This document shows, piece after piece, positions 29,446 to 41,025 of a stretch of DNA of 64,000 nt (position 1 is the stretch's first letter; every line of letters starts with the position of its first letter). Origin of the DNA: an uncultured archaeon. Lineage in GTDB: Archaea > Asgardarchaeota > Thorarchaeia > Thorarchaeales > Thorarchaeaceae. The notes beneath the pieces were generated by a model. That model did not search any database and had not been told where the DNA came from. It was given only the letters and a program-made list of their open reading frames with translations. Both the position numbers and the translations under genes were made by a program. The stretch covers positions 32,001 to 96,000 of the forward strand of contig CAYYQL010000004.1 in the NCBI GenBank assembly GCA_964473825.1, read 5' to 3'.

Positions 29446-29590
29446 TAATCGTTCCCTCTTATCACTACGTATTTACTCTGGGCTCTACAGATATATGCAT
29501 AATGCGGGTGTTTAAGGAGCAATTCTTTGGAACGTACAGTAACAGTTTATGAGGGTCATCTACGTGCATCTCTACGGAGAGAAACTATCG

Positions 29591-31078
29591 ATGCTCATCG
29601 TCCGAGCTGTAGAGAATATCCCAGAACATGGTATCAAGCGAGACGACGAGTTCTCTTTGTATATAGTCGATTCTCACCATCATATGGGCCGCGAAGGTGG
29701 CCATCAGAACACCCCTTCTTCTGCCTACGAATTCTACACGTTGCTCTGGTTTGAACTGAAGAGCGCCGCTGAGAAGTACATGGATGCTGACTCTCTTCTT
29801 TTCGAACCGGTTGGCACAACACCTGTTCCTCTGACAGAGCAAGTACTCCAGGCAAGGGAATCTTGGTCATCTATGGGCCATGGTTGGCTTGTGGACCGAA
29901 CCGTCGTGTTTCCCTTTACTGATGACTACGCCAAATCAGGAGTGCCCGATTCTCCATCGTTCAGTGTATCTAATAACAAGATCTCGGGTTGGACCAGCCG
30001 TGCTCCACATTCTAGTCGTCTCATCGGCTTCGGCAGAGTCGACCCCACTGATGCTAGATATGGGAAACCCAACATCGCGGTGAGCGAGATCGAACGATGC
30101 CGAGATGTGCTAGGCCTTAGAGGTCTCAAACTACATCCACTTGCCCAGTTGTTTGTTGAGGAGATTGAGAATGAATCGACACGGGAAGTTGTTATGCGTG
30201 CTACCGAACTCTTCATGCCCATAGTTTTCGACACAAGGAATTCTAAGACTGTTGAACGAATCATGCGTCTAACTGAGGATATCATATCGACAGAGAAAGT
30301 GGGGATTCCCACAGTCATACTGGCTCATTGTGGGATGAGTCCCGGGAGTGAGTTTCTCTACGACGCCCTGTCAAGAACGTCTCTTTACGGTGACACATCA
30401 TCGCTACATGGAAATGATGTACCGGTGCTCTTCGAGACTGCCCACGAGCGGATCAAGTCTGATGCCTTCCGATGGTCTGAGAAGCTTCTATTTGGAACTG
30501 ATTATAGTTTCTTGACTACACAGGCGATAGATGTCATATTGTACCTCCTATCGAGAGACTTTCCCGGCACTCCAGCTGATATTCAAAGGATTCTCGGCGG
30601 CAACATCATGGGAGTCATCAACAGACCGTATCACACTAGGCATTACAGCAAAACTAAGCCTCGTCATCTCATCTCGACGAACTACCAGACGTCTCGTGAT
30701 GTAATCCAGAGGGCTTTGTGCAAGCAGCTGTCTGATGGTGATGTTGAGCTTCTGTCCATTGACTATATGATTCCACCCAAGCATACCTGGCCTGATATAC
30801 CAACGTCTAAGATGGGAAATGGGTTTCATCTCGACAACCTCTTCATCACCGTGCGTGCTGCATCGTCTGATGCTGTGATACACATCTGGTTGCGTCGTCT
30901 CCCTGATGATACAATGAGTCTTGCGTTAATAGACAGTGGGAGTGAACTCTCACCACGGACTCTTGAACTATCATCAGAAACAATGCCTCTGGCGCTAGAA
31001 GAGTGGCTCTTCGAGAAAGTTGAGAGGGCTAATGAGCATCAAGAATTGAACTCCCTCCTAGAACAGGCTCTTGCATAG
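29591..31078 (+). CDS. Amidohydrolase_2-family metal-dependent hydrolase with C-terminal extra domain
   Basis: VDSHHHMG, FGRVDP, GLRGLKLHP, ILAHCG and LLFGTDY. Confidence 0.85.
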   Translation: MLIVRAVENIPEHGIKRDDEFSLYIVDSHHHMGREGGHQNTPSSAYEFYTLLWFELKSAAEKYMDADSLLFEPVGTTPVPLTEQVLQARESWSSMGHGWLVDRTVVFPFTDDYAKSGVPDSPSFSVSNNKISGWTSRAPHSSRLIGFGRVDPTDARYGKPNIAVSEIERCRDVLGLRGLKLHPLAQLFVEEIENESTREVVMRATELFMPIVFDTRNSKTVERIMRLTEDIISTEKVGIPTVILAHCGMSPGSEFLYDALSRTSLYGDTSSLHGNDVPVLFETAHERIKSDAFRWSEKLLFGTDYSFLTTQAIDVILYLLSRDFPGTPADIQRILGGNIMGVINRPYHTRHYSKTKPRHLISTNYQTSRDVIQRALCKQLSDGDVELLSIDYMIPPKHTWPDIPTSKMGNGFHLDNLFITVRAASSDAVIHIWLRRLPDDTMSLALIDSGSELSPRTLELSSETMPLALEEWLFEKVERANEHQELNSLLEQALA

Positions 31079-31081
31079 AGA

Positions 31082-32440
31082 TTGATGCCACCACTCTTTA
31101 TAACGACACAGGCACTATTCAAGACGAATTCGACTTTGGAGGCCGCAGCAATAACGAGAAAAATCGAAGTTGAGATTCTGGACGGTGGTAATCAAAGAGG
31201 CTTTGCCCTGCTGAATCCAGAAACCATGAAACAGTTGGATGCTGAGATTGGTTCAATAGTCCTGTTTGAAGATCCTCAGAGCAGTTTCTGGGGAGCAGCT
31301 GAGGTTAGAAAGAATGAGGATCTGGATGAAGGGAAGATAGAGGTCGACACTCTTGTCTTGGAGGCATCTCTCTTGATGGAAGGAGATTTGGTCGATCTAC
31401 AACTCTATGATGAAGATATGATCGCGCTAGAATACGTCGAGTTCGGGCTCAAACCCTTGACCGAGGATGCAAACACTGATGACCTTGTTTCTCGAGCATC
31501 TAAGAGGGTGAAGAGTCTAGAGCAGTTGGTGGGTGGGCGTCTCGTATATCCGGGAATGTCGTTTAGCTGGCCTGAAATGGAAGTTAAAGTTGAGATTCTG
31601 AAGACTCGTCCCTCATTAACAGGCAAGAATTTCGCAAAGCTCGCCTTTGAGGCTCTGAGAGAGAAGACTGGCTACCAATTCAAGACCGTTGGCATTGCTA
31701 GCCCATTCAATGCTATTCTCTGCATTGACACAAGTGGGTCAATGAAGACAACTGATGTACCCGTTCAGGACATAGCTCATGCAAGAGAGGGTCTGAAAGA
31801 TTTGGCTGGTGATAATCCAGAGGTCCATAGTTTTCTGAACCGCTTCGATGAAGGAGCCAGAGTGAGCCGGGCTGAGGCGGCAGCAATGGCTGTCTTGCTG
31901 TATCTGGCAGAGAAAGTTGGGCGAGGTTACGGTGAGAAGGTGGGAGTCATCACGTTCGAAAAAGAAGTGAGCGAGATGACCTTCCTTGACTCCGAGACTG
32001 GTGCCGTGAAACCATATGTTGAATGCACGGGTCGGGAGAAGGCTCTAGGGTTGCAGATAATCAGCACCCACGTTGTAGACAAAGTAGAGGAGGGTGGCAC
32101 GCTTACTGACATGGGAACCGCACTGCTCAAGACACGAGAAATCCTCGATGCATTTGGAGATGAGTCTAAACCCGCCATGTTGATTATGCTCACTGATGGA
32201 ATGACGACAGCTGGGTCTCCTCCTCTGAAGGTGCTGAAGGAGCATTTTCCCAACAGAGATAGACTGGTGATTTACTGCATTGGTTTAGGCGAGAGAAGTG
32301 AGATTGATGAGGAGCTGATGCTGGCCATGGCTCAATACGGTAACGGCACATATCGCCATGTTGACAACATGAGGGATCTTCTAGAGTGGTATGGAAGGCT
32401 TGCTAGTGAGTTCGCAGTGGTGATACGAGGACGCGACTAA
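31082..32440 (+). CDS. Cdc48-N/Ufd1-like domain + vWA with intact MIDAS
   Basis: RGFALLNPETMKQLDAEIGSIV (double-psi barrel as in Cdc48/VAT-N), GGRLVYPG...VEILKTRP; ILCIDTSGSM, TDMGTAL, MLTDG and IYCIGLG; start probably ~31136-31151. Confidence 0.8.
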   Translation: MMPPLFITTQALFKTNSTLEAAAITRKIEVEILDGGNQRGFALLNPETMKQLDAEIGSIVLFEDPQSSFWGAAEVRKNEDLDEGKIEVDTLVLEASLLMEGDLVDLQLYDEDMIALEYVEFGLKPLTEDANTDDLVSRASKRVKSLEQLVGGRLVYPGMSFSWPEMEVKVEILKTRPSLTGKNFAKLAFEALREKTGYQFKTVGIASPFNAILCIDTSGSMKTTDVPVQDIAHAREGLKDLAGDNPEVHSFLNRFDEGARVSRAEAAAMAVLLYLAEKVGRGYGEKVGVITFEKEVSEMTFLDSETGAVKPYVECTGREKALGLQIISTHVVDKVEEGGTLTDMGTALLKTREILDAFGDESKPAMLIMLTDGMTTAGSPPLKVLKEHFPNRDRLVIYCIGLGERSEIDEELMLAMAQYGNGTYRHVDNMRDLLEWYGRLASEFAVVIRGRD

Positions 32441-36886: not shown

Positions 36887-39800
36887 TTAGTAGACTGTGA
36901 ATTGCTTCTTTTCAACTTCGAAGGCTCTTGATGGAAGCTGTCTTCCATACTGTGACATAACAACATCGAGGTAGAAGTTCGTAATAACATCAACAGGCGG
37001 GGTCGTCCAATCAATCTCTGTATGGAGTATTCCGTCGTTTAATGTGTCAAAGGGGATATGAAACTCAGCAGAAAGATCTCGCCGAGTCATAATTCTCAAG
37101 GAAATGTGAAGCTTGTCAAGATCAAGACTTCTTGAGATGATTTCTACGGCTATCTTCACAGGTGTTACACGGGGAACTAACCCGGGTATCGGTCTACCCC
37201 TTTCATCCCTCACATCGAGTTTGACCATGAAGACTGGATTATCGATAGCCTTCACTTTGAACTGTTTCTTGTGTGATGACTTGGAGTCTGCATAGTTAAG
37301 ATCAACTATCAGATGGGCTGTACTCATCTCCGCCGATATTGGTACCCTGAATTCCACGGGCAACAGGCTGAATCTATCTGGTTCCAAGAGAACCTCACGG
37401 GTCATCAATGGCTCTATTCCCACAACGGTTTCCAGCTTCACACTAACTTCAGCCCGCTCTGGATTCTCTGTCTGATTAATCAGGTGAATCACAGACGATA
37501 CCTTCTGATCTGGTTTCACAAAACTTGGAATCCCACTGAACGAGACTAGTGTTCTGGCCAAGGTTCTCTCCTTAAGCATAACGAACGCGCTTCGTCGGTC
37601 CAGAAGCATACCACCATATAGTATCTCTGCGATTATTTCGACTTGATTGCTTTCCGAGGCATCAGGCTCCGGGATTTCAAGGGGGCCAAAGGCAAGTGAC
37701 AGGTTTCTGGCTTGATTGACTGGCTGTTCGATTGCTAGAATGGGTTCAGACTCACTATAATTGAACCACAGCTTCAGTGTAGCCGGCTCGCCTTCTTCCA
37801 CGTTTCTGCGGATTCTTAACCATCCGCTGATCTCCTCACCAACTCTGGCTTGTTCTGGAATGCGGAGTGAGTCAATATTCATCAATACTCCTTGGTCACT
37901 AACCATGAATCGTTCTGATTCGGTGACAGAGACTTCTCGTGAGTCCTCCCAGAGAGTTGCTCTAATGACTCCGCTTCTAGCCTGGGGTGAACCTTCAAGC
38001 GCGGGAACTCGCCAATGAATTACCGCCGGTCTTTCCAAGGCATTTGACATTGAAGATGATTCGATCCTATGATTCTGTCCGGAATCTGCCACGAAGCTCA
38101 CATCAAGCTTTGCATCATCGAGTTTCTTTGTCCCCTGTGTTGTCATACTGAGCTCAATAGGGACTGTGTCTCCGGGATGTACTACCGTGCCAATGGTGGT
38201 GCTGAGTGAAATATGAACTGGTCTTCCAGTGAAGCCTACATAGAACGGCTTTGAGATATTTGAAGATATTCGCGTTCCTTGTCTGTCATCGATGGTCATC
38301 CTAAGACGACACCTTTCCACACCCTCTAATGCATCTGCGGGTATTATCAGGGGTGAAAAGTCGCTGCTGTGTAACAGAAGGATACCACTTCCACCCAGGA
38401 CCATCCTCTTTTGTGTTTGAGTAAGACTCATCTCCTTGGCAGGGGCGATAACTTCAATCGTCGAATCAATCTCAATAGGCGCAGGATAGTTGGTTTCGAT
38501 TTCTCCCTCAAAAAAGACCGGAGCTTTTCCGTCTGCGAATTGCGTGGTTGTTGTAGGTCGTAGGCTTGCTTTAACCCAATATGTATTGAGAGTCGCTGAT
38601 ACTGGGATTTCTCTTCCTGCCACTCCGACGTTGGCTATGACATTGTACGCAGTAATTCCTGGCCTCGTCTTGAAGGATACATCGATGATGTGGACCTCCC
38701 CGCTTTCTATCCTCGTTATAGGGTGTATATTTTGTGCGACGAGGTTCCTGTCAGAGTCTTCGACAGAATAGTTCACCCCAATCCCCGCAATCTCATGTTC
38801 GGATGAGTTCATCACGGTGATCTTGAACTCCGCCTCTTGACCTGCAAACACTCTGTCTCTGCCTACGACTATCTCAGGTTCGATGCCTTTCCACCAACAA
38901 AGCCATGTCGGGAGCTTGGGCATCCCCTCTAGTGGATCATATAGCCAGTTTGTACAGCATTCTCTCGTTATCTCGGCCAGCTTCTTGAGGAGAACAACCA
39001 TGTTGTTGTCGGACTGGGCGAAGACATCAAGCTGGAAATCAGCACCTGTTGTCTTGTTGGCAGTTGTTTCACTTCCAAAGACAGTGACAAAGAGTGGTTG
39101 CATGAATGGGTTGTCTATTAGTCCAAGTTCTTCGATTTCATCTCTGATGAGATAGAGCATCGATACTACTGCATCACCAATGAAACGGTTTCTCTTTGAG
39201 GAGTGCAGACGGCCTGATTCATCAATCTGTCTGTTATATACATCGATGAACTCGTTCGAGTCCTCGGATTCGGAAGTGTGAAAGGGTCCCCACATGCCAG
39301 CAACCACCGCGTTCTCACGATTGGCTGAGAGGCAGTCAGGCCCCACATCAGGAATCTCTACACCTCTTTCCACCATCCTCTTGGCCTTCAGTGCTAAGGC
39401 CTGCAGTAGCAACGCTATACCCACTCGCCGAGGAATCGAGAGTTGGGTGTCGAAGACTCGGAGTTCAATGGTATTATAGTCAGTAAACGGATACATGTCA
39501 ACCATGCGGGCAAAAGACCGGTTTACGTGCTTTGCAAATGCATCTTTGTCCGGTGTTCTCAGGTAGGGTATGAATTCGAACTGACTAGTTGGACCCAGCT
39601 GTGTGGTGTTCTTCAGAAGCCGAATTGACCTCTTGCATTTAGGAGCTCTCGTGTTACCCTCATCATCTAACTCAACCACATCTGTGGGCATCTTATTCTC
39701 GAAAGGCGAGTTTACTGACAGGGCGATCAGATGCGGAATGAAATTCCTAATCATATTGTACACGCCTATCTTCACATCAGGTGAAACCTCTGGACCAAGG

Positions 39801-40315
39801 ATGTGATGATGTTCTCCGAATGAGAGATTCTTCAGGTACTCTTGAGTGGGATTGAGGCCCGTGGAGACCATTATTGCCTGAGTGTCAGGTGGAATCGAAT
39901 CATAAGAGACCGCTATGAGCGTCTGTATCCACCAGGCGAGTTCTTCGATAGTTGTACAAGGCGGTGTGGCTATCTCTAGTATCCACGTGATTGAAGTGAC
40001 ATTGGGGTCATGGCCTATGAGGGTATAGTCCTTTACGATTCCGTTTGGTGCTTCATAGCTGGCAACAATTCTTGACCCCCTTTCGCCCTCTTCTGTCTGA
40101 GTTGACTGTTTGTACTTTCTCTTAACCGAAGCAATCTGAGCTGACTGAATTCGTTTGTCCAGGGTTCCTTTTGCACGGGACACCACTCTGTCGAAAACAC
40201 TAAGGATTTCTTCTCCCTGAATCCAGCTCCCATCGCGTTTTATGACCTGTAGCTCGACCTCAATTCCGTGGGGAAATGGAAGTTCCGTTTCTTCTTTCAT
40301 CATGGATGATTCCAT
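36887..40315 (-). CDS. Glutamate-cysteine ligase (GCS2)-fold carboxylate-amine ligase fused to multiple Ig-like domains
   Basis: GIEVELQV, LEIATPP, GLNP, GEHHHI, ALSVNSPF and TIELRVFD in the first ~470 aa; ~670 aa of beta-sandwich-type repeats follow; no signal peptide. Confidence 0.8.
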   Translation of the reverse strand: MESSMMKEETELPFPHGIEVELQVIKRDGSWIQGEEILSVFDRVVSRAKGTLDKRIQSAQIASVKRKYKQSTQTEEGERGSRIVASYEAPNGIVKDYTLIGHDPNVTSITWILEIATPPCTTIEELAWWIQTLIAVSYDSIPPDTQAIMVSTGLNPTQEYLKNLSFGEHHHILGPEVSPDVKIGVYNMIRNFIPHLIALSVNSPFENKMPTDVVELDDEGNTRAPKCKRSIRLLKNTTQLGPTSQFEFIPYLRTPDKDAFAKHVNRSFARMVDMYPFTDYNTIELRVFDTQLSIPRRVGIALLLQALALKAKRMVERGVEIPDVGPDCLSANRENAVVAGMWGPFHTSESEDSNEFIDVYNRQIDESGRLHSSKRNRFIGDAVVSMLYLIRDEIEELGLIDNPFMQPLFVTVFGSETTANKTTGADFQLDVFAQSDNNMVVLLKKLAEITRECCTNWLYDPLEGMPKLPTWLCWWKGIEPEIVVGRDRVFAGQEAEFKITVMNSSEHEIAGIGVNYSVEDSDRNLVAQNIHPITRIESGEVHIIDVSFKTRPGITAYNVIANVGVAGREIPVSATLNTYWVKASLRPTTTTQFADGKAPVFFEGEIETNYPAPIEIDSTIEVIAPAKEMSLTQTQKRMVLGGSGILLLHSSDFSPLIIPADALEGVERCRLRMTIDDRQGTRISSNISKPFYVGFTGRPVHISLSTTIGTVVHPGDTVPIELSMTTQGTKKLDDAKLDVSFVADSGQNHRIESSSMSNALERPAVIHWRVPALEGSPQARSGVIRATLWEDSREVSVTESERFMVSDQGVLMNIDSLRIPEQARVGEEISGWLRIRRNVEEGEPATLKLWFNYSESEPILAIEQPVNQARNLSLAFGPLEIPEPDASESNQVEIIAEILYGGMLLDRRSAFVMLKERTLARTLVSFSGIPSFVKPDQKVSSVIHLINQTENPERAEVSVKLETVVGIEPLMTREVLLEPDRFSLLPVEFRVPISAEMSTAHLIVDLNYADSKSSHKKQFKVKAIDNPVFMVKLDVRDERGRPIPGLVPRVTPVKIAVEIISRSLDLDKLHISLRIMTRRDLSAEFHIPFDTLNDGILHTEIDWTTPPVDVITNFYLDVVMSQYGRQLPSRAFEVEKKQFTVY

Positions 40316-41025
40316 CTGCCCACCCCGAGTTTGAACATCGCTGAAATCATTCCAGTCAGAATCTCTTCTTTGTATGTATATCGCAGGGGCAATGTAGCCT
40401 CCAAGACCATCTCTAAATTGGACATGTTCATTACCGAGATTAGGTCATGGGTGAGTCTACCTCCTCCATAGAGCCCCGCGTCCTTGTAGACTGTGACTCC
40501 GATTTCCTCTAGCTTTGAAGTTATGTCTTTCATCAAGTCGTCCGTGATGTGAATGTACCGCTCGCCAACAACTATGGATTCCGCATTCCCCATTGCATCA
40601 ATGCTGTGCGACCATGTAAGAACAGCAATCCTGCATTTCCTCGCTTCTCCTAGGATTGACTTTGCAGTGTAGGGAATTCTTGTGATGCTGTTTGATAATC
40701 CATCTCTCTGATTGACAAGGATGAGTGATGGAAATCCCGTGGACTTTTGCCGAATTCGTGTCAGGGCATCCCAAAGCGGGTCTGGTTGGGCTCTTGCAAG
40801 AACACAGATGAGCGAGTCTGATTTGCCTGCCTGGAAAGATCCCTCGTCATCGAGTCTCTTGGCTTGAGCATGGCTTTCTAGTTTGCGGACCAGTGTGCGA
40901 ATATGTGCGACTCTCTGGGTAAGACCTTGTGTGATGCTTAAGACCTCTGAAATTTTCTCACTGATGTTCCTGGGCTTCGGGGAGTTCATTGCAATCCTAC
41001 CAGTAGAAACTGTCACATCCATCAC
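40300..41025 (-). CDS. Divergent N-formylglutamate amidohydrolase-like (Zn-exopeptidase fold) protein
   Basis: VLTWSHS...IVVG...LEEIGVTV...YGGGRLT...LEATLPLR resembles the FGase pattern (D.HS, I.LG, PF.GG.IT, Q.EI); overlaps the ligase start. Confidence 0.5.
   Translation of the reverse strand: MMDVTVSTGRIAMNSPKPRNISEKISEVLSITQGLTQRVAHIRTLVRKLESHAQAKRLDDEGSFQAGKSDSLICVLARAQPDPLWDALTRIRQKSTGFPSLILVNQRDGLSNSITRIPYTAKSILGEARKCRIAVLTWSHSIDAMGNAESIVVGERYIHITDDLMKDITSKLEEIGVTVYKDAGLYGGGRLTHDLISVMNMSNLEMVLEATLPLRYTYKEEILTGMISAMFKLGVGRWNHP

Follow-up and report, generated by a model that had tools for sequence, protein, structure and literature searches.

Does the ligase encoded by P0001, a gene of an uncultured Asgard archaeon, act with its neighbours on peptides or proteins, or does it make a small molecule? 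P0001 and the gene directly upstream of it, P0002, lie on a stretch of 64,000 nucleotides (the window) from a member of the Thorarchaeaceae (GenBank assembly GCA_964473825.1, contig CAYYQL010000004.1, positions 32,001 to 96,000 of the forward strand). No known organisms are closer to eukaryotes than the Asgard archaea, and research into how these archaea handle proteins looks for clues to the emergence of eukaryotic regulation. An original prediction, made from the letters of the window alone, had coupled P0001, described as a GCS2-fold ligase with a long Ig-like array recruiting a macromolecular substrate, to P0002, described as an N-formylglutamate amidohydrolase (FGase)-like enzyme. Both open reading frames (ORFs) are present where it had placed them. 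Our analysis suggests that P0001 is the Thorarchaeota form of an Asgard-restricted carboxylate-amine ligase which comes with an amidohydrolase/vWA module and probably acts on a peptide or protein, a reading to which we give about an even chance.

The ligase core of P0001

The original prediction of an intact carboxylate-amine ligase core was borne out. Every motif it had named was found (E19-x-E21, E114, H169-H170-H171, N202-S203-P204-F205 and E284-x-R286), four motif blocks (GIEVE, GEHHH, SVNSPF and ELRVFD) were matched in an alignment with E. coli YbdK, and the AlphaFold2 model of P0001 (predicted local distance difference test, pLDDT, 85) consists of an alpha/beta ligase domain with a GCS2-type fold followed by six all-beta domains. 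In 45 homologues, down to 26% identity, the residues E21, E114, H169, H171, R190, S203, E284 and R286 are invariant. Judged by these residues and by the modelled fold, the core is apparently that of a catalytically competent ATP-dependent carboxylate-amine ligase.

The ligase domain was compared with known structures by VIA-align. The top match was the Salmonella YbdK homologue 1tt4 (Z 33.4, root-mean-square deviation (rmsd) 2.9, 331 of 354 residues, 23% identity), and the other matches were plant GCL 2gwc (Z 26.0), GshF (20.7), Dop (20.3) and PafA (19.4), with weaker ones to GshA (Z 17-19) and the glutamine synthetases (about 15). On the evidence of the model, P0001 belongs to a family that stands as a sister to YbdK/GCS2, outside the PafA type. 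Profile scores were low: Pfam GCS2 (PF04107) gave 18.9 bits, below its cut-off of 21, and 23.7 bits when neighbouring in-frame pieces were added; NCBIfam TIGR02050 (YbdK) gave 55.5 bits (E 5.5e-15) against a cut-off of 176.4, and all NCBIfam equivalog models scored far under their cut-offs. No Pup-ligase Pfam match was obtained for P0001 at E <= 0.01. In public records the ligase is labelled "glutamate-cysteine ligase family protein" or "hypothetical protein", an annotation that is probably misleading.

More than 120 full-length homologues of P0001 (1141-1146 amino acids (aa), about 50-55% identity) were found, and each of 30 Thorarchaeota loci has a P0002 homologue directly upstream of the ligase gene, in the same orientation; the features of the ORF pair are therefore not due to chance. 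In a sample of 301 Asgard genomes, sorted into numbered families (f) and genera (g), the ligase core was present in 174. A library of 1.84 billion representatives contained 146 clusters of the family, 87 of them at E <= 1e-30. Among the best 80 genome loci, 79 are titled Asgard or uncultured archaeon and one record is Thermoproteota; the Asgard titles are Thorarchaeota, "Promethearchaeota", Hermodarchaeota, "Ca. Asgardarchaeum", Jordarchaeia and Freyarchaeota. As far as these searches reach, the family is small and Asgard-restricted, its named records being almost all Asgard. Ligases of the Thorarchaeota type, about 1140-1190 aa long, occur in families f1, f2, f6, f7 and f19, and a second paralogue of 1230-1410 aa is present in f7 (Jordarchaeia) and f19 (Freyarchaeota).

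Other architectures were also encountered. Seven giant proteins of 2232-3804 aa (P0139, P0146, P0147, P0153, P0154, P0169 and P0191) carry the ligase core near the C-terminus; P0146 has an additional helix-hairpin-helix domain, and the remainder of the giant proteins has no Pfam match. In P0176 (1239 aa) a double zinc ribbon is located C-terminal to the core. Three Thorarchaeota ligase genes look decayed (L011, G242:C1:1477734-1481153; L045:4945-8432 in G152; L037:5014-7140 in G055), the types of decay being an in-frame TAA, a division into three ORFs of 364, 795 and 79 aa, and a truncation to 708 aa without a partner. Such damage could be genuine or an artefact of assembly.

An amidohydrolase and a Cdc48N-vWA protein accompany the ligase

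The conserved hydrolase partner of the ligase is a TIM-barrel Amidohydro_2 enzyme and not the small upstream gene, because it is the former that, from one Asgard family to the next, remains linked to the ligase. Amidohydrolase homologues adjoin or lie near the ligase gene in loci L032-L035 and L038-L044. In L032-L035 ("Ca. Asgardarchaeum", Jordarchaeia and Freyarchaeota) the ligase directly adjoins both the amidohydrolase and the Cdc48N-vWA homologues, and the Jordarchaeia have two ligase paralogues, each with its own amidohydrolase and vWA copies. At a Freyarchaeota paralogue locus (L036) the vWA gene alone was found beside the ligase. The amidohydrolase gene of the tail-less ligases described below is on the same strand, before or after the ligase gene, and adjoins it in L038-L042 and L044. 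In the Thorarchaeota, the window included, the amidohydrolase and vWA genes are 4.4-7.3 kb from the ligase, with genes for a HEAT protein, a CPBP protease, a membrane protein and a DUF92 protein in between. Furthermore, one protein, P0174 (962 aa), is a fusion of a vWA domain (residues 219-393), which matches the vWA protein of the window at E 4e-22, to a ligase (452-899). The Amidohydro_2 enzyme is likely the candidate "eraser" of the ligase product, and a macromolecular substrate is plausible, its recruitment being what the vWA/Cdc48N neighbourhood and the fusion of vWA and ligase would fit.

Directly upstream of the tail-less ligases, a conserved protein of about 600 aa without a confident Pfam match is encoded (loci in Table 1). 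A fusion of this protein to the N-terminus of the ligase occurs in one genome (L043:3338-6247, 969 aa). Its first 85 residues or so weakly match tail domain D5 of P0001 (hhalign 51%), which is a lead and not a result. Both this partner and its fusion to the ligase are new. Literature on Asgard carboxylate-amine ligases, on vWA/Cdc48/amidohydrolase and on pupylation yielded no description of the family or the module; a review counts Asgard matches to GshA-type InterPro families, and no more than that.

The upstream protein P0002

In its AlphaFold2 model (pLDDT 82), P0002 has an N-terminal helix of about 40 residues (9-49) and an alpha/beta domain. The top VIA-align match is pyroglutamyl peptidase I 2ebj (Z 12.4, rmsd 2.8, 143 of 192 residues); the FGases 2q7s and 2odf score Z 10.2 and 9.5, zinc exopeptidases and nucleoside phosphorylases 8-9.5, and the poly-gamma-glutamate hydrolases YndL and PghP (3a9l, 5onj) 8.2-8.5. 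The model thus points to an FGase/pyroglutamyl-peptidase fold. The label "FGase-like" may stand as far as the fold and a weak profile comparison are concerned, and failed at the level of Pfam. By hhalign, the P0002 family was aligned to Asgard FGases with a probability of 40.7% over 174 columns, which is the whole domain, and to Asgard C15 peptidases with 3% over 58 columns; language-model features gave a score of 0.90 to the FGase and Gamma_PGA_hydro clusters. Nothing meaningful was matched in Pfam by 32 family members at E <= 10, the PF05013 profile had no match in the genome of P0001 at E <= 1, no NCBIfam match was found for P0002, and a P0002 profile run against PDB sequences returned only coiled-coil noise from the N-terminal helix. 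Family members appear in public records as "hypothetical protein" only, none with a Pfam domain. By profile comparison P0002 is nearer to the FGases than to the C15 peptidases. A genuine pyroglutamyl peptidase I, with Glu, Cys and His intact, is encoded elsewhere in the same genome (G000:C8:86701-87291, L059; PF01470, E 3.8e-50), and P0002 is therefore not the C15 peptidase of the cell.

The residues invariant in the P0002 family are P87, G142, R144, D170, G175-G177 and T199; an invariant His, Cys, Ser, Lys or Glu is not among them. In the profile alignments, the FGase motifs PH, DxHG and QxE correspond to "sA", "LRW" and "ELT" of P0002, which places Ala, Trp126 and Thr199 at the catalytic positions, and Cys142 of the Asgard C15 peptidases corresponds to Gly176. 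The GG-x-x-T loop is retained. With these alignments and the model taken together, it is quite likely that P0002 is a pseudo-enzyme that kept a pocket.

The distribution of P0002 was also analyzed. The family is present in 67 of the 301 genomes and only in families f1 (57/76), f2 (1/1), f7 (3/5) and f19 (5/6); outside the Thorarchaeota loci, the ligase gene is immediately preceded by a homologue at a single locus in each of f2, f7 (Jordarchaeia) and f19 (Freyarchaeota). Its occurrence follows one split of the ligase-core tree (Shimodaira-Hasegawa-like support 0.83), and as the tree has no outgroup, YbdK-like sequences having fallen short of the coverage filter, the "type-A clade" so delimited is an unrooted split and not a rooted clade. 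Between Thorarchaeota genera, P0002 identity is 20-25% versus about 53% for the ligase, so that P0002, as its sequences indicate, evolves far faster. In three genera (g2, g13 and g15) the ligase is intact and full-length, the next gene directly adjoins it and there is no partner gene; the gene order indicates that the partner has been lost repeatedly while the ligase was kept. No P0002-ligase fusion was detected among 145 family representatives. Because the catalytic residues are replaced, the evolution is fast and the gene is lost in three Thorarchaeota genera, P0002 is probably a non-catalytic helper and not a bond-reversing enzyme. The part of bond-reversing peptidase, which the original prediction had suggested, is thus not supported for P0002. 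The position of P0002 nearer to FGases than to C15 peptidases with its residue mapping, the repeated loss of the partner and its restriction to one ligase clade are new.

Two attempts to extend these observations were unsuccessful. P0002-family membership could not be shown for a gene of 214 aa that precedes the ligase gene of "Ca. Asgardarchaeum" (L032), and a comparison of ligases with and without the partner revealed no interface, the 38 changed positions being scattered, mostly conservative and without a cluster. At the f2 locus, an 805-aa EAP30/Vps36 (ESCRT-II type) protein is encoded directly upstream of the partner gene and overlaps its start (L031:1962-4379).

The Ig-like tail

About six beta-sandwich domains without a secretion signal had been predicted downstream of the core, and the analysis agrees. 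In the model, residues 476-1142 of P0001 are all-beta and form six cytoplasmic sandwich domains (D1 to D6) of about 110 residues each, and a scan for signal peptides and for transmembrane or hydrophobic segments found none in P0001 (Kyte-Doolittle hydropathy, 19-residue maximum 1.22) or P0002. Single tail domains resemble glycosidase Ig-like, CARDB, macroglobulin (MG), arrestin/VPS26 and FN3 domains with Z 10-12.7. For D1, the VIA-align matches in this range were glycosidase Ig-like domains, CARDB, the alpha-2-macroglobulin MG domain and the arrestin N-lobe; D5 matched Ig-like domains of complement C4 and TRAP (Z about 11). Searching with the whole P0001 model, Foldseek returned mostly alpha-2-macroglobulin/complement MG arrays with very low TM-scores, and these matches, like those of the single domains, were read as generic similarity of beta-sandwich folds and not as homology. 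By hhalign, D3 was paired with D4 (74% probability) and with D5 (84%); D3, D4 and D5 are, at the profile level, detectably related to one another.

Among Thorarchaeota orthologues the length of the tail is fixed and its domains share 27-47% identity versus 70% for the core, D3 being the least conserved (27%). C669 in D2 is kept in all eleven sequences compared, type-B paralogues included. The GWLRIRR motif of D4 is conserved solely within the Thorarchaeota family, and the C-terminal F-T-x-Y of D6 is invariant within it; in a search for tail motifs of deep conservation, the candidates GWLRIRR, AEMST and C-terminal FTVY were rejected, since they are kept within Thorarchaeota only. Conservation of the tail had been set beforehand as part of the test of the original prediction, and it is not universal: in five other Asgard families (f9, f22, f24, f27 and f28) the ligase is a tail-less form of about 470-590 aa.

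Proposed mechanism and alternative explanations

In the mechanism that we favour, the ligase would phosphorylate a carboxylate and join it to an amine, the carboxylate most likely being that of a glutamate-type side chain or terminus. The substrate would probably be peptide- or protein-bound and would be docked by the vWA/Cdc48N protein, and the TIM-barrel amidohydrolase would reverse the amide bond. P0002 would be a non-catalytic subunit which has kept an N-acyl-glutamate-type binding pocket and works as an adaptor for specificity or regulation. The tail would act as a scaffold, a role that a separate partner of about 600 aa would take over in the tail-less lineages. Gene neighbourhoods thus suggest a ligase family wired to a vWA/Cdc48N docking protein and a metal hydrolase, to which some lineages add a pseudo-enzyme subunit and an Ig-like platform. 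A more specific proposal, which we put forward tentatively and judge rather unlikely to hold in full, is a reversible protein modification in Asgard archaea that is carried out by a GCS2-type ligase and would have evolved convergently with pupylation and TTLL/CCP glutamylation. A protein-bound Glu would be activated (for example a C-terminal, N-acylated Glu, a shape recognised by FGase pockets), the dead partner would read or present the residue, Cdc48N-vWA would dock the target, Amidohydro_2 would erase the mark and the six Ig-like domains would be the platform. If protein modification is true, ATP-driven protein tagging or side-chain ligation would have been invented independently for a third time, after the ubiquitin-type and the Pup-type systems; if a small molecule is made instead, the system would define an unknown Asgard metabolite.

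Several observations weigh against action on a peptide or protein by this module. No substrate, product or tag protein has been identified, and the 142-aa neighbour of P0002 was rejected as a Pup-like tag, its C-terminus being variable. In structure, small-molecule enzymes come nearest to the core (YbdK with Z 33, GCL with Z 26, versus 19-20 for PafA/Dop). P0001 is the sole GCS2-like gene of its genome, in which no GshA-type gene was found, and P0001 may on this account have a thiol or metabolite role. The tail is not needed for the ligase chemistry, since many family members are without it, and Ig-like arrays also occur in enzymes acting on small molecules, such as GH2 glycosidases. As for the dead partner, the FGase residue mapping comes from a profile alignment of just 41% probability, and the invariant R144, D170 and T199 could form an unconventional active site. 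P0001 could be a small-molecule enzyme whose product is gamma-glutamylcysteine or some other free gamma-glutamyl amide or metabolite, its tail serving only oligomerisation or stability and its neighbours being metabolic helpers. What keeps this alternative alive is that the core most resembles YbdK and GCL and that other lineages do without the tail; the public records and the review, which count such genes as GshA-type, are also on its side. We nevertheless consider it unlikely: the scores are far under the curated YbdK and GCL cut-offs, the Cdc48N-vWA linkage and fusion are not expected for a thiol pathway, the giant members (2200-3800 aa) and varied fusions do not suit it, and no glutathione synthetase context was seen around the ligase.

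Two further explanations give P0002 another part. It could be an active FGase-like hydrolase with non-canonical residues which removes the modification written by the ligase, as the original prediction had it. Members of the FGase, gamma-PGA-hydrolase and pyroglutamyl-peptidase fold do cleave glutamyl amide bonds, the gene is arranged in a tight overlap with that of the ligase, and the invariant R144, D170, G175-177 and T199 are located at active-site positions of those enzymes. The family, however, has no invariant His, Cys or Glu, the FGase His/His/Glu and peptidase Cys positions are Ala, Trp, Thr and Gly, P0002 evolves fast and is dispensed with in three genera, and the partner conserved with the ligase is another hydrolase, Amidohydro_2; an active P0002 appears improbable. 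Still more improbable, in our estimate, is a cytoplasmic synthesis of a gamma-glutamyl oligomer or modified peptide in which the dead P0002 would hold the chain and the amidohydrolase would trim it. The resemblance of P0002 to the poly-gamma-glutamate hydrolases YndL and PghP and to the Gamma_PGA_hydro cluster, as well as a ligase chemistry suited to gamma-glutamyl bonds, would fit such a role, but no precursor peptide or export genes are linked to the ligase across families and the known poly-gamma-glutamate synthetases and peptide ligases have other folds.

Arrangement of the genes

The coordinates of the genes and domains are collected in Table 1. P0001 and P0002 are co-oriented, and they overlap by 16 nucleotides, or by ATGA if the ligase starts at M5. 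Given this overlap, translational coupling of the two genes is plausible. The longest possible ORF for P0002 (40300-41025, minus strand) has a GTG start and encodes at most 241 aa; since the orthologues are 222-230 aa long and begin where P0002 has M13, the start is probably M13. The 142-aa protein encoded directly upstream of P0002 contains a strongly conserved GRGSxGxGMTPLVGGY motif and has no family match. In nearly all Thorarchaeota loci examined, its gene stands between the partner gene and Opp/Dpp ABC ATPase genes.

Table 1. Position of the ligase, its partner, neighbouring genes of the window and the 600-aa partner of tail-less ligases at other loci.
Feature	Coordinates	Strand	Basis
P0001, carboxylate-amine ligase with Ig-like tail, 1142 aa	36887-40315 (stop codon included)	-	ORF list and translation
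P0001 ligase domain, residues 8-475, YbdK/GCS2-like fold	38891-40294	-	Structure superposition, TIGR02050, motifs, invariant columns
P0001 tail domain D1, residues 476-588, beta-sandwich	38552-38890	-	AlphaFold2 secondary structure
P0001 tail domain D2, residues 589-700, beta-sandwich	38216-38551	-	AlphaFold2
P0001 tail domain D3, residues 701-811, beta-sandwich	37883-38215	-	AlphaFold2
P0001 tail domain D4, residues 812-920, beta-sandwich	37556-37882	-	AlphaFold2
P0001 tail domain D5, residues 921-1027, beta-sandwich	37235-37555	-	AlphaFold2
P0001 tail domain D6, residues 1028-1142, beta-sandwich	36890-37234	-	AlphaFold2
P0002, partner, 229 aa from M13	40300-40989	-	Orthologue lengths; FGase/pyroglutamyl-peptidase fold by AlphaFold2 model
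Amidohydro_2-type metal hydrolase	29549-31078	+	Pfam PF04909, E 1.2e-8
Cdc48N-vWA protein	31082-32440	+	Pfam VWA_2, E 3.2e-8; CDC48_N weak
142-aa helical protein directly upstream of P0002	41081-41509	-	Conserved across Thorarchaeota
About 600-aa protein	L038:2997-4727		
About 600-aa protein	L039:6820-8622		
About 600-aa protein	L041:6726-8624		
About 600-aa protein	L042:2866-4728		
About 600-aa protein	L044:1630-3417		

Comparison with known systems

P0002 appears to share its alpha/beta fold, as well as the GG-x-x-T motif, with the FGases (PF05013; 2q7s, 2odf) and the poly-gamma-glutamate hydrolases (PF05908; 3a9l, 5onj). It differs from the FGases by the lack of a Pfam-level match, by the replacement of the conserved His/His/Glu and by the added N-terminal helix of 40 residues. 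Pyroglutamyl peptidase I (Peptidase C15, PF01470; 2ebj, 3rnz) is its best single structural match and the nucleophile loop is echoed (AGxYGCN versus xGxFGGG in P0002), whereas the Glu-Cys-His triad is missing, Cys being replaced by Gly176, and the profile match is weak (3%).

The ligase itself resembles YbdK/GCS2 (PF04107, TIGR02050; 1tt4, 1r8g; plant GCL 2gwc) in its fold and in the ExE, E, HxH, SPF/SPY and ExR motifs. In contrast to these enzymes, the core of P0001 is about 100 aa longer and scores under the curated cut-offs, a 670-aa Ig-like tail and a dedicated putative pseudo-hydrolase partner are present, and the family, whose named records are nearly all Asgard, is linked to amidohydrolase and Cdc48N-vWA genes.

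In pupylation, gamma-glutamyl phosphate chemistry is carried out on a protein and the writer and the eraser are encoded together (PMC2588565). With the actinobacterial PafA and Dop, P0001 has the superfold in common (Z 19.4 and 20.3), and the logic of the module may be analogous, with glutamyl-phosphate chemistry on a protein and a writer/eraser pair. No candidate for a Pup-like tag or a proteasome linkage was found among the neighbours, the genome not having been searched for small tags. In structure, YbdK (Z 33) and GCL (Z 26) stand much nearer to P0001 than PafA/Dop do, and where the eraser of pupylation is a paralogue of the ligase, the candidate eraser of the Asgard module is a TIM-barrel Amidohydro_2 enzyme.

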